A stretch of DNA of 32,000 nucleotides. Origin: Candidatus Saccharimonas aalborgensis (GTDB lineage Bacteria > Patescibacteriota > Saccharimonadia > Saccharimonadales > Saccharimonadaceae). The stretch lies in assembly GCF_000392435.1 (NCBI RefSeq), contig NC_021219.1, positions 660,001-692,000 on the forward strand, in the 5' to 3' direction. The translations under genes and the position numbers were made by a program. Below the pieces are notes generated by a model. That model did no database searches, was not told the origin of the DNA, and saw only the letters and a list, made by a program, of their open reading frames with translations. Shown piece by piece: positions 6,490-32,000 of the stretch; the stretch's first letter is position 1; the number at the start of each line of letters is the position of its first letter.

Positions 6490-6565
6490 GCCGCTGTAGC
6501 TCAGTTGGTAGAGCGGCGCTTTCGTAAAGCGTAGGTCACCGGTTCAACCCCGGTCAGCGGCTCCA
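6490..6565 (+). tRNA. tRNA-Thr (anticodon CGT), CCA encoded, discriminator U
   Basis: The acceptor is GCCGCTG/CAGCGGC and the D arm is GCTC-agttggta-GAGC. The anticodon loop is TTCGTAA and the T arm is ACCGG-TTCAACC-CCGGT. The discriminator is T followed by CCA. Confidence 0.9.
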
Positions 6566-6953: not shown

Positions 6954-8618
6954 ATGATTGATCTTGAACTGCCTCTTAATAAGCGCACAAAACTGTATCG
7001 ATTTTTTGAGATACTGCCTGGTTTTTTGAGCTATGGTATGATAATACTTCTTTTTGTTCTAGCAATGGTAAGTCCTCTTGCTGCCGCTGTCTATTTACTT
7101 TTACTTATTATTACTATGTTCGTGAAAGCAGGCGGTATTGCGTTTCGTTCAATCATGGGTCATCGCAGACTAGTGCGCGCACAGCGTATCAATTGGCACG
7201 CTAGGCTCGCTGAGCTTGAAGATCCGGCCAAGAGCTACCACACTGTCATGGACGTGTCATCAAGTGGTTTTGAGTATGATACGCACAAGGAAAACCTTCG
7301 TTTTATGGCTGCAGACCCAAATATGTTCCCAAAGCCGTCCACGTTATATCAGATGGTTATCATTGCCGCTTATAATGAGGCTTATGATGTGCTCCAGCCA
7401 ACCATCGAGTCAGTACGACATACGCACTACAACAATCAGCAGACTATCCTTGTGCTCGCCTATGAGGAGCGTGGGGGGGTAGGAATTGCCGAAACAGCTA
7501 AGCGGCTTCGCGATGAGTATAGCGGCGTCTTTCTCTCTTTCGAGACGATCATGCATCCAGACGGTCTCTCTGACGAAATACCGTCAGGAAAAGGGCCTAA
7601 TATTACCTTTGCCGGGCACAGAATGAAGGAATGGTGTAAAAAGAGACGGATTGATTACTCAAACGTCATTATTACGACGCTTGATGCTGACAACCGTCCA
7701 CATCCCTCCTACTTTGATTATGTGGCGTATGAGCATATCGTTCATGAGGATCGAAAGCGATTGTCGTATCAACCCATCTCACTATACTTCGGTAATATAT
7801 GGGATGCTCCTGCGCCAATGAGGGTCATTGCGACCGGTAACTCATTCTGGACGATCATCAGTGCCATGAGACCGCATACACTGCGGAATTTCGCTGCCCA
7901 CTCACAGCCAATGGACGCACTGGTAGAGATGAATTTTTGGAGCAAGCGCAGCATCGTTGAGGATGGGCACCAGTATTGGCGGAGTTACTTTTACTACGGG
8001 GGAAATTATAGCGTCGTCCCCATCCATGTCCCCATTTATCAGGATGCAGTGATGTCCGATACGTACCGAAAAACGTTGGTGGCGCAGTTTAAACAACTAC
8101 GACGCTGGGGATATGGTGCCTCAGATATACCGTATGTTGCGACAAGACTCTTTACCAAAAAGCGAAACGTTCCGTTTTTCGAGGGACTTGCGCGTTTCTT
8201 GCGACTAGTAGATAGCCATGTCACCCTTGCGGGGATGGCAATACTTGTGACGTTTGGGGGGTGGGTACCACTTCTCGTCAATTCAGAAGCATCGCGAAAC
8301 TATGCTGCGCATATGCTGCCAGACGTTGTGAGCCAGATACAGAGAGTTGCAATGATCGGACTCTTCATTACCATTATATTGACGTTACGCATGCTTCCCC
8401 CGAGGCCTAGTCACCACAAGCGGCGGCGAATGGTATGGATCATACTACAGTGGATACTTATTCCAGTAACATCGATCGGCTACGGTTCGCTCGCAGCGTA
8501 TAACGCTCAAACACATCTGATGACGGGGAAATATCTTGATACCTTCGATGTCACTGAGAAGGCCACACTGGCCTCGCGCGCGCGCGCCAAAGAGCAACGG
8601 TCTTCGGCAAAAAAATAA
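6954..8618 (+). CDS. membrane-embedded family-2 glycosyltransferase, processive (cellulose/chitin-synthase-like) type
   Basis: The motif series typical of processive beta-glycosyltransferases is present: IIAAYNE (UDP-binding D/E), TLDADN (DxD, 7683-7691), VEDGHQ (ED) and QLRRWGYG (QxxRW, 8094-8108). TM helices flank the catalytic domain. Confidence 0.8.
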   Translation: MIDLELPLNKRTKLYRFFEILPGFLSYGMIILLFVLAMVSPLAAAVYLLLLIITMFVKAGGIAFRSIMGHRRLVRAQRINWHARLAELEDPAKSYHTVMDVSSSGFEYDTHKENLRFMAADPNMFPKPSTLYQMVIIAAYNEAYDVLQPTIESVRHTHYNNQQTILVLAYEERGGVGIAETAKRLRDEYSGVFLSFETIMHPDGLSDEIPSGKGPNITFAGHRMKEWCKKRRIDYSNVIITTLDADNRPHPSYFDYVAYEHIVHEDRKRLSYQPISLYFGNIWDAPAPMRVIATGNSFWTIISAMRPHTLRNFAAHSQPMDALVEMNFWSKRSIVEDGHQYWRSYFYYGGNYSVVPIHVPIYQDAVMSDTYRKTLVAQFKQLRRWGYGASDIPYVATRLFTKKRNVPFFEGLARFLRLVDSHVTLAGMAILVTFGGWVPLLVNSEASRNYAAHMLPDVVSQIQRVAMIGLFITIILTLRMLPPRPSHHKRRRMVWIILQWILIPVTSIGYGSLAAYNAQTHLMTGKYLDTFDVTEKATLASRARAKEQRSSAKK

Positions 8619-9018: not shown

Positions 9019-9095
9019 TGGTGGGCGATAGAGGATTCGAACCTCTCACCTCGTCTACGTCAAAGACGCGCTCTAGCCAAATGAGCTAATCACCC
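9019..9095 (-). tRNA. tRNA-Val (anticodon GAC), CCA encoded
   Basis: The reverse complement folds as acceptor GGGTGAT/ATCGCCC, D arm GCTC-atttggcta-GAGC, anticodon stem CGTCT/AGACG with loop TTGACGT, and T arm AGAGG-TTCGAAT-CCTCT. The discriminator is A followed by CCA. Confidence 0.9.
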
Positions 9096-9129
9096 AAGAT
9101 GATACTATAATAACAAACAGAGGCGGCCG

Positions 9130-9158
9130 TTGCAATTATACTGTGTTTTTTGTAAGAT
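9130..9158 (+). promoter_or_regulatory. candidate promoter for the thrS leader (TTGCAA-17 nt-TAAGAT)
   Basis: The hexamers and the 17-nt spacing were read directly from the sequence. An alternative TATAAT lies at 9106-9111. Confidence 0.35.
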
Positions 9159-9164
9159 AAGAGA

Positions 9165-9341
9165 TAAGCAATGAAGCAGACTAACCACCTGCAGAGCACG
9201 TGGAAGCGATCGCTGGGCACACGAAAAAGCCTAGGGGTAAGAGTAACGCCAAGGTGGAACCTCCGCTTAGTAAGCGGACCGAGGCACGCGGACACGATGT
9301 GAAACATCGGCAAAACGCGTGTTTTTAATTATTATGGAGGT
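9165..9341 (+). promoter_or_regulatory. candidate T-box riboswitch leader (tRNA-Thr sensing) upstream of thrS
   Basis: A T-box-like core is visible. Helix A1 is GCCAAGG(9248-9254)/CCGAGGC(9279-9285). The 7-nt bulge is UGGAACC(9255-9261). Helix A2 is UCCGC/GCGGA with a 7-nt loop. Downstream lies a hairpin, CACGCG(9285-9290)...CGCGTG(9316-9321), followed by TTTTT. ACCUCC(9259-9264) is complementary to the thrS SD GGAGGU(9336-9341). A possible specifier ACC-A lies at 9184-9187. I could not fold Stem I convincingly by eye. Confidence 0.5.
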
Positions 9342-9346
9342 TATAT

Positions 9347-11167
9347 ATGAACCAAGAACAGCTCAATGCGATGCGTCATAGCCTTGCACACATAACCGCT
9401 CAGGCGGTTCAACGCCTGTGGCCAGAAGCGAGGTTTGGTGTTGGTCCCGTGGTAGAGAATGGCTTCTACTACGATATCGATGTACCGGGGGTTAAGATAT
9501 CCGAAGACGATTTTGCCAAAATCGAAGCCGAAATGCGCAAGGTAATTGAGGAGAATTTTTCTTTCGAGCGTAGCGAAAAACAAGTTGACGAAGCGATCCA
9601 CTGGGCCGAAAATGCAAAGCAGGTGTACAAGGTAGAGCTACTTAACGACCTTAAGCGTGCCGGCACAACAGTTGCCAAGGATCTAGATGCTTCCGAGATG
9701 GGCACGATCGCTGAGGGTGACGCCGCGGTAGAAAACGTTTCATTCTACACTGATGGTGATTTCACTGATCTTTGTCGTGGTCCGCATGCCGAAAGTACTG
9801 GCAAAGTTGGCGTCTTCAAGCTTATGCGTGTGGCGGGTGCCTACTGGCGCGGTAAAGAGACAAACCCCCAGATGCAACGGCTTTATGGAGTGGCTTTCGC
9901 TAGCCAACAAGAACTCGATACTCATCTTAAAATGCTCGAAGAAGCAAAAGCTCGTGATCACCGTAAACTAGGCAAAGAGCTCGATCTCTTTACGTTTTCT
10001 GAGCTAGTCGGACCCGGTTTGCCACTCTGGACTCCACGCGGCACAATTCTACGCAATAAACTGGATGCATTTGTGCAGACTCTGAGGGATGAAGTTGGCT
10101 TCGAGCAGGTTGCTATTCCTCACATAACCAAGAAAGACTTATATGAACGAAGCGGACACTGGGCAAAATTTTCTGACGAGTTATTCAAATCTCAATCACG
10201 TGAAGGCCATGAATTCGCCCTCAAGCCCATGAATTGTCCGCACCACACACAGATTTACGCCTCTCAACCGCGCAGCTACCGTGACCTGCCAATCCGTTAT
10301 CGTGAAACGACCACTTGTTATCGTGATGAGCAGAGTGGCGAGTTAAACGGTCTAAGTCGTGTGCGAGCATTTAACCAAGACGACGCGCATATTTTCTGTC
10401 GTGCTTCGCAGGTCGAGCATGAAGCGCTGGCTATTTGGGATATAATTGACAAATTTTATGGTGGGCTTGGATTTGGTGAGCTAAAAGTTCGTTTTTCGAC
10501 CCATGATCCCGACAATATGGCCGCTTATCTAGGTGAAGAAGCAAAGTGGCAGGAGGTGGAGTCTCAGCTGCTCAATGTTGTAAAGCATCGAGTCGGCGAT
10601 GCCTTCATGCCAGGCATTGGTGAGGCTGCCTTCTATGGGCCAAAAATTGACTTCATGGCCAAGGACGCACTTGGTCGCACGTGGCAGGTCGCAACAATCC
10701 AGCTTGATTTTAACCAGCCGGAAAACTTTGATTTAACCTGCACTGATGAGCAAGGTAACCCTGAGCGTATTGTTATGGTGCATTGTGCTATTATGGGGTC
10801 GCTCGAGCGCTTTCTTAGCATCTATATTGAACACTCGGCGGGCTGGTTCCCATTTTGGGCAGCTCCTGAGCAAATACGTATTCTTACTATTAACGACACG
10901 GTGAAAGACTATGTTGATGAAATAACATCGATTCTATCAGAGATAGTTTTGATGCAACCACTTAAATACAACGAAGTACGATTTACAACAGATGACCGAA
11001 ACGAATCGCTGGGTAAGAAGATTCGCGCTGCGACGGAGATGAAAATTCCCGTACAACTTATTGTCGGGCCAAAGGACAAGGAAGCTCGACAAGTGAGTCT
11101 TCGTACACGTAGCGGAGAAGAAAAAGTGAACCTCGACGCGTTGGCTGATTACCTAAGAGGCCTATAG
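9347..11167 (+). CDS. thrS: threonine--tRNA ligase, lacking the N-terminal TGS domain
   Basis: The N-terminus RHSLAHITAQAVQRLWPEARFGVGPVVENGFYYDID matches the editing (N2) domain HxxxH region. Also present are the class II core with MNCPHHTQIY (zinc site) and a C-terminal anticodon-binding domain. GGAGG lies 6 nt upstream of the ATG. Confidence 0.95.
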   Translation: MNQEQLNAMRHSLAHITAQAVQRLWPEARFGVGPVVENGFYYDIDVPGVKISEDDFAKIEAEMRKVIEENFSFERSEKQVDEAIHWAENAKQVYKVELLNDLKRAGTTVAKDLDASEMGTIAEGDAAVENVSFYTDGDFTDLCRGPHAESTGKVGVFKLMRVAGAYWRGKETNPQMQRLYGVAFASQQELDTHLKMLEEAKARDHRKLGKELDLFTFSELVGPGLPLWTPRGTILRNKLDAFVQTLRDEVGFEQVAIPHITKKDLYERSGHWAKFSDELFKSQSREGHEFALKPMNCPHHTQIYASQPRSYRDLPIRYRETTTCYRDEQSGELNGLSRVRAFNQDDAHIFCRASQVEHEALAIWDIIDKFYGGLGFGELKVRFSTHDPDNMAAYLGEEAKWQEVESQLLNVVKHRVGDAFMPGIGEAAFYGPKIDFMAKDALGRTWQVATIQLDFNQPENFDLTCTDEQGNPERIVMVHCAIMGSLERFLSIYIEHSAGWFPFWAAPEQIRILTINDTVKDYVDEITSILSEIVLMQPLKYNEVRFTTDDRNESLGKKIRAATEMKIPVQLIVGPKDKEARQVSLRTRSGEEKVNLDALADYLRGL

Positions 11168-14992: not shown

Positions 14993-15346
14993 GCAGTTGA
15001 TTAGGCAATCGCTCGCCCTCATGGGCTAGAGGAAAGTCCGGGCAGCATAGGATACAACAGTCGCTAACGGCGACCGGGGGTGACCCTAGGGAAAGTGCCA
15101 CAGAAACGATACCGCCATCTCAAACAACAACTTGTTGCGACTGATGGTAAGGGTGAAAGGAGTGGGGTAAAAGCCCACAGTCGACCGCGGTGACGCGGAA
15201 GAGAGGTAAACCCTGTTGGCTGCAAGGTGGCTGGTACACATAGGGCTATCCGTCCGTGCCAACCGATATCCGCTTGATCCGCCTGGCAACAGACGTGGCT
15301 AGATAGATGATTGTCCTCGACAGAACCCGGCTTACAAATCAACTGC
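14993..15346 (+). ncRNA. rnpB: RNase P RNA, bacterial type A
   Basis: The universally conserved P4 strands GAGGAAAGTCCGGGC (5') and ACAGAACCCGGCTTA (3') are present. The P1 helix is GCAGTTGATT (14993-15002) pairing with AATCAACTGC (15337-15346). An internal GGTAAGGGTGAAAGG element is also present. Confidence 0.9.
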
Positions 15347-15350
15347 ATAT

Positions 15351-18115: not shown

Positions 18116-18499
18116 GGGGCTGACTAAGCTTTCGACGTGAGGACTTTAACAGGCTATTTCGGCATACCGACCTCTGACGTAATCAGAATCAATAATTGCA
18201 AACAATTTCTTTGCAAGGCTGTTTGCGCCCCTCAAGGCACAACCAGTACTCGCTTAACAACATGTTAAGCCACGCATTGCTTGATATCTACTGAAGCTAA
18301 TGTCGTGTTATATATCGTAGAATCGGTAGAAGCTGCTTTTACGACAGTTTCTATTTAAACTCTTCGTAAATCACCGTGTTTGCATCTGCGTCGTACTTTA
18401 AGCAAATAATGTGATTAAACAAAGTTGAGTATGACTATGTATGTAGATGAATAGCAAGTTACCTTGCGGACCCGGGGGCAGTGCCCGGCAGCTCCACCA
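18116..18499 (+). ncRNA. ssrA: tmRNA (SsrA); predicted tag ANNFFARLFAPLKAQPVLA
   Basis: The 5' GGGGCTG pairs with the 3' CAGCTCC, including the G3-U pair, followed by A and CCA. The conserved TTCGACG element lies near the 5' end. The tag frame runs from GCA at 18198 to TAA at 18255-18257. The T-arm is CCGGG-GGCAGTG-CCCGG. Confidence 0.9.
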
Positions 18500-20151: not shown

Positions 20152-20589
20152 ATGGAACCAAAGCAAGCAGCGCCAACTGGTGGGTATGAGCGACCCCTTG
20201 TATCTCAAGAGGCCGCAGGGAGCCAACCTGTTTATGATGCCGAGCTGGGCTCACATGGCATGGTTGAACAGAGGGGTGAACGAAATCATGAAGGATTACC
20301 GTTATCTCCCGAAGCCCCGTCAGTGCCAGTACAAGCCATACCTTCTTTGCCGATTCCGCTGCCGGTAGTAGATGACACAGTACAGACGACAAATCTGACG
20401 GCGAATGACGACAGTGGCTTGGTCGCTGCAGATGATGACTTGATTGAGAAAGAATGGGTAGAAAAAGCCAAAAAGATACTCCTTCAAACGAAGGATGATC
20501 CCTATAAACGCGAGCAAGAAGTTAGTAAGCTCCAGATCGAATATATACGCAAGCGCTATGGGCGTACAATTAGCGATGCAGGACAGTAA
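20152..20589 (+). CDS. hypothetical protein: ~100-residue disordered P/A/E/D-rich N-terminus plus a conserved-looking basic C-terminal helix
   Basis: I trimmed the start from 20068 to ATG 20152, because the upstream part overlaps the previous gene's end and the promoter. The C-terminus reads DLIEKEWVEKAKKILLQTKDDPYKREQEVSKLQIEYIRKRYGR. The stop overlaps the start of the ATPase gene (TAATG). Confidence 0.6.
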   Translation: MEPKQAAPTGGYERPLVSQEAAGSQPVYDAELGSHGMVEQRGERNHEGLPLSPEAPSVPVQAIPSLPIPLPVVDDTVQTTNLTANDDSGLVAADDDLIEKEWVEKAKKILLQTKDDPYKREQEVSKLQIEYIRKRYGRTISDAGQ

Positions 20590-23417
20590 TGGGTAGTTCG
20601 TTGAATGTTTTTATAACGATGTTTGTTGTTGCAAGTTTTATTATTGCAATCTCGGCAATAGCGTTTTTGATGTATCGTAAAACTCTTCGAGAGGCAAAAA
20701 ACTATGAACGGGGACTAAAGATGGTGCCAATTATGATCCATTTGCCCCCCGCAAGTGACGATATCGAGGTAAATAGTCGGGATAAACGCGATGTTACAGA
20801 GGAAGCGCTTTCCCAGGCGAATGTTATGTACAACATAATCTCCAGTACGGCTACTAAGGGGTTTAAGAGTAAGATTTACGGCCAGCGTCACTTATCATTC
20901 GAAATAGTCGCTCGCAACGGATTAGTCTACTACTATGCCGTGGTGCCTGTCGTATTGATTGACGCGGTAAAGCAGTCAGTGGCGGCCGCCTATCCGTCGT
21001 CTCGACTCGAAGAAGTTTCGGAGCACACGGTCTTTAGCCAAGTTGGAAAATTGAGCGGCACGATTGGCGGAGAGTTCACGCTTAAAAAACATTTTTCGCA
21101 TCCAATAGCAACTTACACTGAGTCCAAGCGTGATGCTTCTCGTGCCCTTCTAAATGCTCTCTCTGCTGCGACGCGTGAAGATGGAATTGGTGTACAAATT
21201 CTGATCCGTCCTGCTCGCGAGAACTGGACATCAAGCTCGCGCAGGGCTGTAGAAAAGATAAAAAAGGATCGAGCAACTGGAAAAACGGCTCACGGTGGTT
21301 TTTTTACTCTTAGAGATATGACTGAAGCATTATGGCGTCCACCTAACCCTGCCGAAAACCACCCTACAGAGCATACGGTGAATACGCAACTTACTGCACT
21401 TGAGCAACAAGAGATTGATGCAATCGAGGAAAAAACGCGATATCCTGGCTTTGAGACGTTAGTGAGAGTGGTAGTCTCATCAAATACCGCAGCGCACGCG
21501 CAGGTACTCCTGAAAAATGTCGTATCGGCCTTTTCGCTGTTTGATTCACCAAACAATAATGGGTTCTCGTTTTCGATTTCCAAAAATATTGATGAACTTG
21601 TGTCCGCGTATGTATTTCGTTTTTTCCCCCAAACCCTATCAAGCAATATTCTGAACAGCATTGAGCTGGCCTCAGTTTTTCATTTGCCAGACCAAGATAG
21701 TATCCCTACATCCCAGGTGCAGCGGCAGATGAGCAAGCAGGTTGATGGTCCCACGCAGGTCATGGAAGAGGGGTTGTTACTGGGCTATAACGAATTCCGT
21801 GGGGTCAAAAAACCGATTAGGTTGGGCGATAAAGACAGGCGCAGGCACATACACATAATTGGTCAGACAGGTGTCGGTAAATCTGTATTACTAGAGAACC
21901 TTGCGTATCAGGACATGATGGATGGACGAGGATTCGCATTTATTGATCCTCATGGTGACTCTGTCGAGGCGCTTCTTAGCAAGGTGCCGAAAGAGCGCGT
22001 AGAAGACGTCATCTACTTTAACCCGAGCGACATGGCGAATCCGACGGGGCTTAATATGTTTGAATTTGATCACCCAGATCAAAAAGATTTCTTAGTCCAA
22101 GAGGCGATCGCTATGCTCTATGGTTTGTACGACCCGGGACACACCGGTATCGTGGGACCACGTCTCGAGCATATTTTTCGTAACTGTGCGCTACTCCTTA
22201 TGAGTGATCCAGCGGGTGGTACGTTTATTGACATTCCAAAGCTTCTTGTGGACGAGGAGTTCATGAAGAGTAAATTAAAATATGTTACTGACCAGCAAGT
22301 TCTCGACTTTTGGACAAAAGAATTTCCGGCATCGCAACGTTCGAGTGAGGCGGGTGAGGTAATAAGTTGGGTAGTATCGAAGTTTGGGCCGTTTATTAGT
22401 AATGATGCAATGCGGAATATAATTGGTCAGACAAAGAGTGGATTTAATATTGCCGAGGTGATGAACAATAAAAAAATTCTTCTCGTTAACCTATCTAAAG
22501 GGAAAATGGGTGATCTTAACTCTAAGCTGCTGGGTATTATATTCGTAATGAAGTTTCAGGCGGCTGCGATGGCTCGTGCAAATATGGCAGAAGAGGAAAG
22601 GAAAGACTTTACACTTTTCGTCGATGAGTTCCAGAACTTTGCGACCGATAGTTTCGGGACTATTTTGTCGGAAGCTCGAAAATATAGGTTGAGCTTGGTG
22701 CTTGGTAACCAGTTTATGACACAGCTAAAAGAAGATTTAAGAGAAGCTATTATTGGAAATGTCGGGACAACAGTGACTGGTCGTATTGGTATCACTGATG
22801 CGGAAATTATGGTAAAGCGCTATGCGGCCGCATTTGACGCGGAGGATCTCACTAAACTTCCAAATCACGAATCGGTGGTTGTGGCACAGATACAGGGTGT
22901 TCCGTCTGCTCCCTTTAGCATGAGCTGGATACCGGCGATGGGGCAGGCAAATCAGCAGCTAAGTGATGCACTGAAGCGACTTTCGGCGGCAAAATACGGA
23001 CGCCCAAGAGCTAAAGTTGAGCAGGAGATATTTACCAGGTTAACCGTGAAGAAATCTCTTTCACCACAAACTCCCGGAGGTTTACCTACAATGTCGGGTG
23101 CCCCCGGAGTTGCCGGTATTCCCGCAGCAACATCGGCTTCGTCCGGATCCTCATTTCTTGATGAGTGGCTGGCAAAGCGGAAACAACTTTCGACTGCACC
23201 GGCTTCACAGACTGCTGCGCAGGCAGCTTCTATCGCGAATCCCGTTACAAATACTATCGACACCACCAGCAACGGGCAGGTATTGACCGCTTCACCATCT
23301 ATACAACAAGCAAGCCAGCCGGTCATTCCCGCTACTGGCGTAGTAGAATCCGATAAGCTGACGCTCCGAGGTGGAGATGAAGTGGCGTCTAATGAGGTAT
23401 CAGTAAAGATTCGTTAG
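20589..23417 (+). CDS. membrane-anchored P-loop ATPase resembling type IV secretion coupling proteins (VirD4/TraG/TraD family)
   Basis: An N-terminal TM helix (VFITMFVVASFIIAISAIAFLMY) is followed by an unrecognised ~390-aa domain. Walker A is IIGQTGVGKS (21861-21884), followed by FAFIDPHGD. Walker B is TLFVDEFQNF (DE at 22623-22628). LSLVLGNQFMTQL...GN.GT resembles the TraG-D_C/T4CP C-terminal motif. Residues ~822-915 form a low-complexity A/S/T/Q/P tail. Confidence 0.75.
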   Translation: MGSSLNVFITMFVVASFIIAISAIAFLMYRKTLREAKNYERGLKMVPIMIHLPPASDDIEVNSRDKRDVTEEALSQANVMYNIISSTATKGFKSKIYGQRHLSFEIVARNGLVYYYAVVPVVLIDAVKQSVAAAYPSSRLEEVSEHTVFSQVGKLSGTIGGEFTLKKHFSHPIATYTESKRDASRALLNALSAATREDGIGVQILIRPARENWTSSSRRAVEKIKKDRATGKTAHGGFFTLRDMTEALWRPPNPAENHPTEHTVNTQLTALEQQEIDAIEEKTRYPGFETLVRVVVSSNTAAHAQVLLKNVVSAFSLFDSPNNNGFSFSISKNIDELVSAYVFRFFPQTLSSNILNSIELASVFHLPDQDSIPTSQVQRQMSKQVDGPTQVMEEGLLLGYNEFRGVKKPIRLGDKDRRRHIHIIGQTGVGKSVLLENLAYQDMMDGRGFAFIDPHGDSVEALLSKVPKERVEDVIYFNPSDMANPTGLNMFEFDHPDQKDFLVQEAIAMLYGLYDPGHTGIVGPRLEHIFRNCALLLMSDPAGGTFIDIPKLLVDEEFMKSKLKYVTDQQVLDFWTKEFPASQRSSEAGEVISWVVSKFGPFISNDAMRNIIGQTKSGFNIAEVMNNKKILLVNLSKGKMGDLNSKLLGIIFVMKFQAAAMARANMAEEERKDFTLFVDEFQNFATDSFGTILSEARKYRLSLVLGNQFMTQLKEDLREAIIGNVGTTVTGRIGITDAEIMVKRYAAAFDAEDLTKLPNHESVVVAQIQGVPSAPFSMSWIPAMGQANQQLSDALKRLSAAKYGRPRAKVEQEIFTRLTVKKSLSPQTPGGLPTMSGAPGVAGIPAATSASSGSSFLDEWLAKRKQLSTAPASQTAAQAASIANPVTNTIDTTSNGQVLTASPSIQQASQPVIPATGVVESDKLTLRGGDEVASNEVSVKIR

Positions 23418-24050: not shown

Positions 24051-25709
24051 TTAGATAGTACCTGAGTTTAGCTCGCGACGAATGAGACGAACCTCTTTTT
24101 TCATCTGGCGTGAACGTGCATAGAAATAGGATACAACTGCCAGTATAGATCCGGCAAAGAGCATATTCTCCGCGGGACCAGTGTGTGGGAGCTGAGATAC
24201 TGTTTGCTCGATAATTTTTTTCTGAACAGGACAGTCAACCGAGATATCAACTGAGTTGCCAAAGGTATTTGTTATCTTACAATCGTACGATGTTTTGTCG
24301 CTGACACCTTCTCCCATCGCGGGGATGGTATTAAACACTTGGACGGTGAACATGCGAGTCTGTTTTTCTCCAGGCTTTAGGGTAATGGTCGGCCACGTCA
24401 AAACTTTATTTGACAAAGTACCACTGCCGTTATCGATGACGCTTGAATATTCGAGGACATCACTAAGTTCTTCGCGAATTGATACAGATGTGGGAGCGAG
24501 TCCCTTGTTTTCTATATTGAGGCTATACACGACTCTATCAGATGGTTTTGCGACGACACTTGTCGCGTCTTTACCCTGGGTAGTGTTTTGGGCAGTCTTT
24601 GTTTCTACCAGTGAGGCTTTGCATTTTTGATCCTTAATCCAGAGAGTTGCATCTCCCGGACATGGTTGACACTCTGGGTCACTTTTTAGCAATGACGGGT
24701 TTTGTGGACACTTTTCGGGGGCAGCAATGTGAAATGTCTTCGTACAATCATCTCCCCGCATCTCACCCAGAGAGGTTTGTACTACTAACTCAATCGTATA
24801 GTCGCCCTCTACTCCCTTTGAATCGAAGACGTATTGATTGGTGTCTGAAGTAGAAGATGCAGGATGGGTTTCCACTACTATACCGTTTCTCTTAATGACG
24901 TAGGTATATTTGGCGATAGTTGCACCATGATCAACATAGGCTTTCCCATCGAGCTGATAAAGGTTATTTGCGAGGGGAGTAACCGAAAGACGCTCACATC
25001 GTGCCACGGGCTCATACTTACATCTCGCATCATCGGCGGTGATGGTGGTTTTACCCGGTATAGTACACATCTTTGGTGGGGGTGTGCAGTTTGGATAGGT
25101 ACCTACCGTTCCGGCGGGACATTGTGGAGGTGGGGGAACTGTTTTTGTTACTAGGTTTCCACATACTTTCATTAGGCCGAACCAGCCTAACTTTGCCGAA
25201 TATCCTACGTATATATAATAGTTTGATCCTGATGGAGCACTATTCCAAAGGGTCAAGGGCCGATTATAGTAGGTACGCATTGCCCCAGACGATGTCTTAA
25301 TAGTGTATGTCCGTTCTCCCTGGGCGTAGCTAAAGTGGCTAGTTAGTCCCCAGCTGATAAGGCCATCACGTTTTGAATTAAGATATTGCAATTTTGCCGC
25401 CGCCATCTCCTGGCGGGTAATACCTAGCGTATTATAGAGGTCGCGTATATTGTTGGTATTCGCATCGTAGTGATTTAGATAGTCCTGTAGACTAGTGACG
25501 CCGCCATAAATGAAGTTTGATGGGCTGGATGCATTTGCTGATTCGGGAGGTGAAAATACCGCAAATGACTGTACAACGAGTGCGAGTACAGTAAAAATAA
25601 GCCCTATGCGTCGGGTCGTTTCTTCTTTTCGTAGCCTTTTTGCGTAAAACCCAAGCTGACCGACGAGAGCCGGGCTAAATGCGATGTTTGATATTAGTTT
25701 TCTAAACAT
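24051..25709 (-). CDS. LPXTG-type cell-wall-anchored surface protein with a Cys/Pro-rich linker and a DUF11/CARDB-like repeat region
   Basis: The C-terminal sorting signal is LPHTG (24177-24191), a hydrophobic stretch MLFAGSILAVVSYFYA, and a basic tail. The N-terminal signal anchor is RRIGLIFTVLALVVQSFAVF. The linker is PPPPQCPAGTVGTYPNCTPPPKMCTIPGK. VVYSLNIENKGLAPTSVSIREELSDVLEYS..LTWPTITLKPGEKQTRMFTVQV resembles the conserved repeat domain (DUF11). I chose ATG 25709 (AGGTGA upstream), with ATG 25745 as the alternative. The track start at 25808 was rejected. Confidence 0.75.
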   Translation of the reverse strand: MFRKLISNIAFSPALVGQLGFYAKRLRKEETTRRIGLIFTVLALVVQSFAVFSPPESANASSPSNFIYGGVTSLQDYLNHYDANTNNIRDLYNTLGITRQEMAAAKLQYLNSKRDGLISWGLTSHFSYAQGERTYTIKTSSGAMRTYYNRPLTLWNSAPSGSNYYIYVGYSAKLGWFGLMKVCGNLVTKTVPPPPQCPAGTVGTYPNCTPPPKMCTIPGKTTITADDARCKYEPVARCERLSVTPLANNLYQLDGKAYVDHGATIAKYTYVIKRNGIVVETHPASSTSDTNQYVFDSKGVEGDYTIELVVQTSLGEMRGDDCTKTFHIAAPEKCPQNPSLLKSDPECQPCPGDATLWIKDQKCKASLVETKTAQNTTQGKDATSVVAKPSDRVVYSLNIENKGLAPTSVSIREELSDVLEYSSVIDNGSGTLSNKVLTWPTITLKPGEKQTRMFTVQVFNTIPAMGEGVSDKTSYDCKITNTFGNSVDISVDCPVQKKIIEQTVSQLPHTGPAENMLFAGSILAVVSYFYARSRQMKKEVRLIRRELNSGTI

Positions 25710-25762
25710 GGCGTCACCTGTTGTATGTTTATATTTAGGAATCATATACTTCTTTCGTGTGT

Positions 25763-25771
25763 ATTTTAGCA
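25763..25771 (-). promoter_or_regulatory. extended -10 (TGcTAAAAT) for the LPXTG operon
   Basis: The minus strand reads cttaTGCTAAAATacacacg. Confidence 0.45.
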
Positions 25772-25817
25772 TAAGAAATATGTTCAAGACAATACCTTGA
25801 ATGAACAATTTTTTTTA

Positions 25818-31019: not shown

Positions 31020-32000
<981 letters not shown>

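Follow-up and report, generated by a model that had tools for sequence, protein, structure and literature searches.

A conserved leader of thrS in Candidatus Saccharimonas aalborgensis is most likely a T-box-type tRNA-Thr sensor of minimal architecture acting by transcription attenuation

We analysed a stretch of 32,000 nucleotides (nt) from Candidatus Saccharimonas aalborgensis (contig NC_021219.1, positions 660,001 to 692,000; hereafter the window), in which thrS, encoding threonine--tRNA ligase (TIGR00418, 588.9 bits vs a cut-off of 383.65), occupies positions 9347-11167 of the plus strand, the strand of all features described below unless stated otherwise. An intergenic gap of 251 nt separates a tRNA-Val(GAC) gene on the minus strand (9019-9095) from the ATG of thrS at 9347, and a Shine-Dalgarno (SD) sequence, GGAGGU, is found at 9336-9341, upstream of the start codon (9347-9349). 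The thrS leader contained in this gap folds more stably than shuffled sequence (z = -3.45). An earlier interpretation made from the letters of the DNA (the sequence-only reading) had described here a T-box-like leader with two helices, A1 and A2, around a bulge, a hairpin followed by TTTTT, an ACCUCC stretch complementary to the SD and an ACC-A candidate codon, and we found each of these features in place. The leader is conserved, and most likely it is a T-box-type sensor of tRNA-Thr with a new minimal architecture, working by transcription attenuation.

The antiterminator core of the leader (9248-9285) consists of helix A1 (9248-9254/9279-9285; GCCAAGG/CCGAGGC, with 5/7 positions paired), the bulge UGGAACC (9255-9261) and helix A2 (9262-9266/9274-9278; UCCGC/GCGGA) with its 7-nt loop (9267-9273), and 10 of the 13 positions that the T-box consensus AGGGUGGNACCGCG specifies are matched in the window. 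Just upstream lies the purine string AAGAG-U-AA of the discriminator (9239-9246), i.e. the RRRxG...AA motif, usually found on both sides of Stem III (definition in PMC7583486). The core motif GGTGGNACC occurs once in the window vs 0.46 occurrences expected, which is not beyond chance within the window alone; its significance comes from conservation across loci. The window holds no second element, with no other GGTGGNACC and no other aminoacyl-tRNA synthetase (aaRS) gene.

Scanning GTDB genomes and JGI metagenomes with ThrRS yielded 160 loci, cited here by their L numbers, among which the closest are Saccharibacteria, with at most 65-67% amino-acid identity to the ThrRS of the window. In a first set, TGGAACC was present upstream of thrS in 13 of 36 loci of the candidate phyla radiation (CPR), vs about 0.03 expected per locus, and a second set added 10 more loci; one of the first 13, L029, sits in coding sequence and was excluded from the family. 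Placed side by side, the leaders display a single shared module order. From the window and 12 Saccharibacteria-type leaders we built our own covariance model (R1; 120 positions, 19 pairs), which scores the Saccharibacteria-type leaders (window plus 13) at 60-102 bits (E-values 1e-13 to 1e-23). Among these is L088, which lies outside the seed and was found by R1 itself (64.5 bits, E=1.5e-13). R1 matches the window once, with nothing credible elsewhere in 534 kb, and a structure-aware motif scan of all 160 loci gave no additional site outside coding sequence. Two further sites were rejected as noise inside long open reading frames (ORFs), namely an R1 match at L001:817-943 and a UGGU site at L024:1775. 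Among the loci collected, the element is found only ahead of thrS or, in L088, of a nudix-thrS operon: there (L088:845-1490) the leader precedes a 143-aa ORF with a Nudix box (GGHVDPGEQPVAALEREIMEELG), the end of which overlaps the start of thrS, and the T-box heads the operon.

The leaders covary as well as being conserved. A model-based count over 14 sequences gave 82% pairing in the nested structure, with 11/19 pairs changed on both sides, and a covariation score of 0.552, vs 0.228 for shuffles (0/500 reach it) and at most 0.109 for slid registers. MAFFT failed to place a 1-nt register shift in A1, which makes the outer A1 pairs look poor in this count, and pairs were recounted with explicit strands. 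Across leaders, A1 is 94% paired and so is A2, and 0/1000 shuffles reach either value. In Stem I, 6/7 pairs change on both sides, 0/500 shuffles attain the score and slid registers collapse. In the comparison of related thrS leaders, a check that the sequence-only reading had suggested, GG-UGGAACC is invariant in 23 CPR leaders, and Stem I, A1 and A2 covary.

Because RF00230, the Rfam model of T-boxes, misses the window itself, homology to T-boxes was argued through relatives. L005, which scores 92 bits with R1, is aligned by RF00230 over model positions 1-219 (36.7 bits, E=4.6e-07 in a narrow permissive search). In this alignment the GA motif of the model falls on AAGCAUUGAAG...GGAGCUU, 72 Stem I positions collapse to 5 nt, and the match runs on to A1 by way of a IIA hairpin, AAGUG-Stem III-AA, the T-box sequence and A2. 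L102, a CPR leader further removed, scores 38.6 bits (E=1.8e-07) and is likewise aligned over the full model. Both scores are far under the RF00230 gathering score of 93, which no relative reaches. To judge from these alignments, the Saccharibacteria-type clade is homologous to T-boxes yet effectively invisible to RF00230, and the leader of the window is very probably a T-box homologue. Conservation, covariation and the RF00230 match to L005 all support the proposal of the sequence-only reading that a T-box-type, tRNA-Thr-sensing leader lies upstream of thrS. No other Rfam family matches the window leader significantly; a weak, non-significant match of the C/D-box snoRNA model sR17 to 9167-9218 (10.5 bits, E=2.9, on AGCAAUGAAG) fits the K-turn-like sequence found there.

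This kink-turn (K-turn) opens an ultrashort Stem I (9168-9197), a description that we take from the review PMC7583486. The K-turn, GC-AAU-GA...GA-GC (9168-9174/9194-9197), is made of a C-stem (G9168-C9197 and C9169-G9196), a bulge AAU (9170-9172) and the pairs G9173.A9195 and A9174.G9194. Above it, a 4-bp GCAG/CUGC hairpin (9176-9179/9189-9192) carries a 9-nt apical loop (9180-9188) that exposes the Thr codon ACC followed by a purine, A9187 (9184-9187). The GA dinucleotides of the K-turn are invariant, its C-stem covaries (GC, AU, GU), and in L005 the RF00230 alignment puts the homologous bases on the GA motif of the model; the sequence pattern places this putative K-turn directly beneath the specifier hairpin. 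The sequence-only reading had expected a reduced Stem I and had missed the one on the K-turn, failing to build a canonical Stem I because the stem is of the 'ultrashort' kind. Its candidate specifier is supported: 13/14 Saccharibacteria-type leaders have the codon ACC, with ACU in L034, the purine that follows is A in 13 and G in L081, and each of these leaders has the Thr codon plus purine in its apical loop. Other CPR leaders also carry ACC-A apically. An alternative specifier, ACG-A at 9222-9225, which would fit the nearby tRNA-Thr(CGU), was rejected, as it lies in the pseudoknot loop described below and reads GCG in half the family.

A hairpin with these features ahead of thrS also brings to mind E. 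coli, where ThrRS autoregulates its translation through a protein-binding mimic of the tRNA-Thr anticodon arm, with no T-box discriminator. Read in that way, the leader would be an operator bound by ThrRS to repress translation. The regulated gene is the same, both systems have a structured 5' leader related to tRNA-Thr recognition, and the 7-9-nt hairpin loop resembles an anticodon loop (C-U-N-A-C-C-A). The conserved loop CU(A/C)ACCA, however, displays the codon ACC and not a Thr anticodon (GGU, CGU or UGU), a complete T-box discriminator is present and relatives are matched by RF00230, so that we hold a protein-binding operator to be very improbable. Less credible still is a leader-peptide attenuator or a chance resemblance to T-boxes. 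An ORF of 43 aa (9171-9302) with 5 scattered Thr codons does overlap the leader, but its ATG belongs to the AUGA of the K-turn and is not conserved (it is missing in L001, L082 and L087), and it has neither an SD nor a run of Thr codons; chance is excluded by the covariance-model E-values and the covariation.

The window encodes a tRNA-Thr(CGU) (6490-6565) that ends in ...CAGCGGC-U-CCA, i.e. with an encoded CCA and with U73, the U discriminator to which the sequence-only reading had matched UGGA. This is not the cognate isoacceptor for ACC. The tRNA-Thr(CGU) of L004 likewise has U73-CCA, and the bulge UGGA matches the U73-CCA of both Saccharibacteria tRNA-Thr genes available (window and L004).

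Between Stem I and the discriminator, the position of Stem II together with Stem IIA/B is occupied by a compact middle domain (9199-9234), with a hairpin (CUGGGC 9213-9218/GCCUAG 9229-9234) whose loop is ACACGAAAAA. We propose that CACG in this loop (9220-9223) pairs with CGUG (9199-9202) to give a pseudoknot, the exact fold of which is putative. Reading the sequences by eye, we find a hairpin with a (N)CG-N-N-A loop in most members. The pseudoknot stem shows compensatory changes in L002 (CGUC/GACG), L034 (CGCG/UGCG) and L088 (CGG/CCG), and is statistically non-significant when taken alone. An alternative pseudoknot, CCGU/ACGG, was discarded: a U-to-C change in L034 breaks it and keeps the CGUG:UGCG-type pairing. 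In L005, RF00230 aligns the equivalent of the middle hairpin to the IIA hairpin and leaves Stem II essentially unaligned. As the window has no Stem III, its T-box core amounts to only about 118 nt.

Downstream of A1 the leader ends in a two-part, intrinsic-terminator-like hairpin (9285-9321) with a U-run (9322-9326), the foot of which can be extended by pairing GAGGC (9281-9285) with GUUUU (9321-9325), the whole spanning 9281-9326. In the window, the computed energies are -15.1 kcal/mol for the core hairpin, -19.5 with the extension and -12.5 without C9285. The sequence-only reading had noted a terminator-like hairpin here, and it proved to be conserved: in Saccharibacteria-type leaders the hairpin and U-run adjoin A1 with zero spacer (in L007 the hairpin is weak, at -8.6 kcal/mol, and the computed pick in L002 is a long-range artefact). 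Only 1-2 nt of A1 are shared with the terminator by Watson-Crick pairs. In 13/14 leaders, the terminator foot can take up 4-5 nt (GAGRC) from the 3' strand of A1, with a gain of 3.6-8.4 kcal/mol (6.3 in the window), their partners being G/C and the U's at the 3' end of the stem. In L084, L085 and L088 the extended foot is followed by a further U-rich tract, which implies that the foot is part of the stem proper there. When the U-run is included, the extended terminator of the window displaces A1 (-53.8 vs -50.8 kcal/mol), and the probability of A1 falls to 0.001 in the free fold.

These computed folds suggest that the leader follows the classical logic of T-boxes with a far shorter shared segment. 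The anticodon of uncharged tRNA-Thr(GGU) would pair with ACC (9184-9186), shown in the apical loop of the ultrashort Stem I on its K-turn, and UGGA (9255-9258) in the bulge between A1 and A2 would base-pair with UCCA at the free 3' end of the tRNA. The latter pairing would lock A1, whose last 5 nt (GAGGC, 9281-9285) otherwise enter the terminator foot; with A1 locked, the terminator would remain incomplete and RNA polymerase would read through into thrS. Charged tRNA-Thr would be unable to stabilise A1, the terminator would form and transcription would stop at 9322-9326. We infer from this arrangement that the leader binds tRNA, senses its aminoacylation and has termination as its output, the last of which we hold with moderate confidence. 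Taken as a whole, we consider it probable that the thrS leader (about 9165-9326) is a tRNA-Thr-specific T-box riboswitch of an undescribed minimal architecture operating by transcription attenuation.

In principle, the same sensor could act on translation, or on both levels. In the absence of tRNA, (A)ACCUCC (9258-9264) would pair with GGAGGU(U) (9336-9342) and block initiation, and a tRNA engaging the bulge and A2 would free the SD. The complementarity of ACCUCC (9259-9264) to the SD (9336-9341) is real, with a strong duplex of 7 bp in the window (-12.2 kcal/mol) and of 9 bp in L001 and L082 (-13.7 kcal/mol), two leaders that keep UCC at the start of A2 though the rest of A2 differs; besides, the short-Stem-I T-boxes known so far are translational. 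Yet the other ten of the 13 Saccharibacteria-type leaders tested have weak or no complementarity (-2.6 to -7.4 kcal/mol in nine, and an imperfect -10.3 in L003), and in the ensemble of the window transcript the probability of this anti-SD pairing is about 0.08, vs 0.92 for the A2 hairpin. Moreover, the T-box itself accounts for the invariance of ACC, and NCC opens most A2 helices, so that a match needs only one extra base plus an A/U-rich spacer, and a conserved terminator-like hairpin with its U-run stands between anti-SD and SD. Because complementarity is weak or absent in those ten leaders, anti-SD pairing is not the mechanism of the family; it may add a further layer in a single lineage, or be coincidental and favoured by the invariant ACC. 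We thus regard a translational or dual output as unlikely. The dual potential that the sequence-only reading had seen is, with 3/13 leaders, not a family feature, and its likening of the arrangement to the actinobacterial ileS type did not hold up. In the reading given by the review, the actinobacterial sequestrator is the counterpart of the terminator hairpin, whereas the anti-SD of the window sits in the bulge and the 5' strand of A2. No sequestrator helix of class II type was found: the SD lies 10 nt past the U-run, and SD complementarity occurs only in the same 3/13 leaders.

Several observations speak against transcription attenuation by a tRNA-Thr T-box. RF00230, the search that the sequence-only reading had put forward as a check, gave no match on the window, neither at gathering nor at E<=10 on stretches of 371 and 171 nt; L022 was also unmatched, and a permissive multi-locus run returned nothing for 11 relatives, probably owing to filters that are stricter on longer input. 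The distal platform of Stem I, which contacts the tRNA elbow, is absent, with only 4-5 bp and a 7-9-nt loop above the K-turn. There is no recognisable S-turn Stem II: no opposed AGUA/GAA motif was seen, and only 1-2 nt separate the 3' strand of the K-turn from CGUG. Stem III is absent in the window and 7 relatives, with 0-2 nt between the purine motifs, and is present in the remaining 6/14 (L003, L005, L034, L083, L007 and L088) where 15-31 nt between AAGUG/AAGAG and AA form a hairpin. A2 of the window is closed by U9262-A9278 and not by the G.U 'steric sensor'; among 19 distinct sequences this pair is GC in 8, GU in 6, UA in 2, AU in 2 and CG in 1. Terminator and antiterminator share a segment of only 5 nt, which pairs mostly with the U-run itself, and in an RNA ending at 9321 the antiterminator coexists with the -12.5 kcal/mol hairpin. 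A cognate tRNA-Thr(GGU) was not found in the window plus 74 loci. Finally, the strands of A1, A2 and the pseudoknot in the explicit-strand count were assigned by eye.

Some of these points would fit a decaying relic, in which discriminator and codon are inherited, tRNA sensing has ceased after the loss of Stems II and III, and the hairpin serves as an attenuator or stabiliser that is always on. In favour of this, the leader lacks modules that have been called essential, the overlap within the switch is small, and several Saccharibacteria (L004, L006, L027, L092 and L010-L014) are without a leader entirely. Against a relic, the bulge is invariant, the Thr codon is retained, the form without Stem III is common to at least 8 divergent leaders, and many compensatory changes are seen in Stem I, A1 and A2 across ThrRS 57-65% identical to that of the window. 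This indicates continuing purifying selection on the structure, and we judge a relic to be quite improbable, leaving a functional tRNA-Thr T-box as the preferred interpretation. Among the Saccharibacteria with no leader ahead of thrS (L004, L006, L027, L092, L010, L011, L012 and L014), some are labelled oral, yak gut or Nanosyncoccus, and in L004, L011, L012 and L014 thrS directly follows tRNA-Val and a promoter. Some Saccharibacteria lineages appear to have lost the element.

Among described systems, specifiers in an apical loop are a trait of actinobacterial T-boxes with a short Stem I, which act on translation (PMC7583486). Like the ileS T-boxes of M. tuberculosis, M. smegmatis and N. farcinica (TBDB 'class II'), the leader of the window has an apical specifier, a short Stem I above a K-turn, no elbow platform and a small, putatively pseudoknotted element before the discriminator, as well as the same layout of purine string, A1, UGGN-ACC bulge and A2. 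The actinobacterial T-boxes have in addition an S-turn Stem II, essential with a truncated Stem I according to the review, and Stem III, whereas the window has no recognisable Stem II and no Stem III. They also respond to tRNA-Ile and act on translation through an SD sequestrator, in contrast to the proposed ligand tRNA-Thr and a terminator-like hairpin with U-run in a patescibacterial leader with a core of about 118 nt; in M. tuberculosis, the ileS construct that runs from Stem I to antisequestrator measures 166 nt. In M. tuberculosis the partner strand of the pseudoknot lies downstream, while CGUG, the partner proposed here, lies upstream.

With canonical RF00230 T-boxes (e.g. B. subtilis tyrS and glyQS) the leader shares the T-box sequence, the K-turn, a specifier of codon plus purine and a target gene of a typical kind, an aaRS; it would also share their terminator/antiterminator logic and their UGGN:NCCA pairing, which covaries with N73. 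In canonical members, Stem I is long and has a distal platform and a specifier in an internal loop (72-92 RF00230 model positions are deleted here), Stem III is present, a G.U pair lies at the base of A2, and about 12 nt of the A1/A2 3' strands go into the terminator's 5' arm, compared to 5 nt shared in the window, which scores under all RF00230 thresholds. The S-turn Stem II is optional in the T-box family and is absent in glyQS.

A second architecture of thrS T-box was found in CPR (L022, L024, L026, L032, L096, L102, L114 and L025). It has the same gene, the UGGAACC bulge and an apical ACC-A specifier. It differs from the Saccharibacteria type in a 7-nt loop, CUACCAA, on a covarying hairpin, in extra hairpins enclosed by a CAGAGAUU...AAUCUG helix, in the presence of Stem III, in a near-consensus T-box sequence and in a classical terminator overlap of 9-12+ nt. 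R1 sees these leaders weakly (E 0.008-0.27). They come from Parcubacteria/Paceibacterota, Doudnabacteria and others (L022:2769-2950, L024:2561-2740, L026:2656-2840, L032:2645-2820, L102:1250-1450). In L102 (1253-1345) there are two AUACCAA hairpin loops, the second of which RF00230 aligns as Stem II; this may reflect duplication or coincidence.

We tentatively suggest, with confidence somewhat short of even, that thrS genes of Patescibacteria (CPR) carry a T-box clade not recognised before. At about 110-118 nt of core, its Saccharibacteria form would be smaller than any other natural T-box. It would mount the specifier in an apical loop on a K-turn, replace Stem II and IIA/B by a single small pseudoknot, often dispense with Stem III, have no G.U sensor pair and let the terminator compete for only 5 nt. 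Full-text literature searches turned up no T-box reported from CPR, Patescibacteria or Saccharibacteria, and nothing relevant on T-boxes without Stem III. The finding extends T-boxes to Patescibacteria and exposes an annotation gap, since the whole clade is missed by RF00230 at its gathering score and the TBDB short-Stem-I model was run only on Actinobacteria and on sequences already detected by RF00230 (PMC7778990).

T-boxes serve as the model for how one RNA recognises the identity and charge of a tRNA, and a conserved, covarying natural example without platform, Stem II or Stem III, placed before a terminator, offers a direct test of minimal requirements. According to PMC7583486, the platform is required for transcriptional T-boxes, Stem II for those with a short Stem I, and Stem III for binding of the 3' end. 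Were the leader to act co-transcriptionally as proposed, tRNA capture and charge sensing would take much less RNA than present structural models suggest, and an elbow-binding platform would no longer be a general requirement of transcriptional T-boxes. A minimal T-box would also be a compact part for engineering; a recent perspective states that Patescibacteria still need an inducible expression system and regards riboswitches as promising for it (PMC11665869).

As for the transcription of the leader, a putative promoter was read by eye at 9130-9158, with a -35 box TTGCAA (9130-9135), a 17-nt spacer and a -10 box TAAGAT (9153-9158). It matches 8/12 consensus positions, which is why it is missing from our promoter-scan list, and a similar layout was seen in L002, L081 and L005. 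Tentatively, this sequence predicts a transcript start near 9165, 3 nt ahead of the K-turn. TTGCAA is palindromic and could be a common -35 box of two divergent promoters (window 9107-9158): TTGCAA/17/TATTAT on the minus strand toward tRNA-Val(GAC), which is in the scan list, and TTGCAA/17/TAAGAT on the plus strand toward the thrS leader. L002 and L081 have the same TTGCAA layout, and most Saccharibacteria loci keep the divergent tRNA-Val/thrS synteny. A weak sigma-70-like site (TCGGCA/17/TATTAT, 9/12) falls within the terminator 3' arm and U-run (9307-9335) and, if active, would bypass the riboswitch.

Elsewhere in the 32-kb window, two large ORFs, at 6954-8618 (554 aa) and, on the minus strand, at 24051-25808 (585 aa), have no NCBIfam match, and a 942-aa ORF (20589-23417) shows only a weak VirD4/TraD-like coupling-protein similarity (E about 1e-8). 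The window also contains the RNase P RNA (14993-15350, 246.7 bits), tmRNA (18116-18499, 88.8 bits), five tRNA genes and, at its end (31020-32000), the 5' 980 nt of the 16S rRNA.

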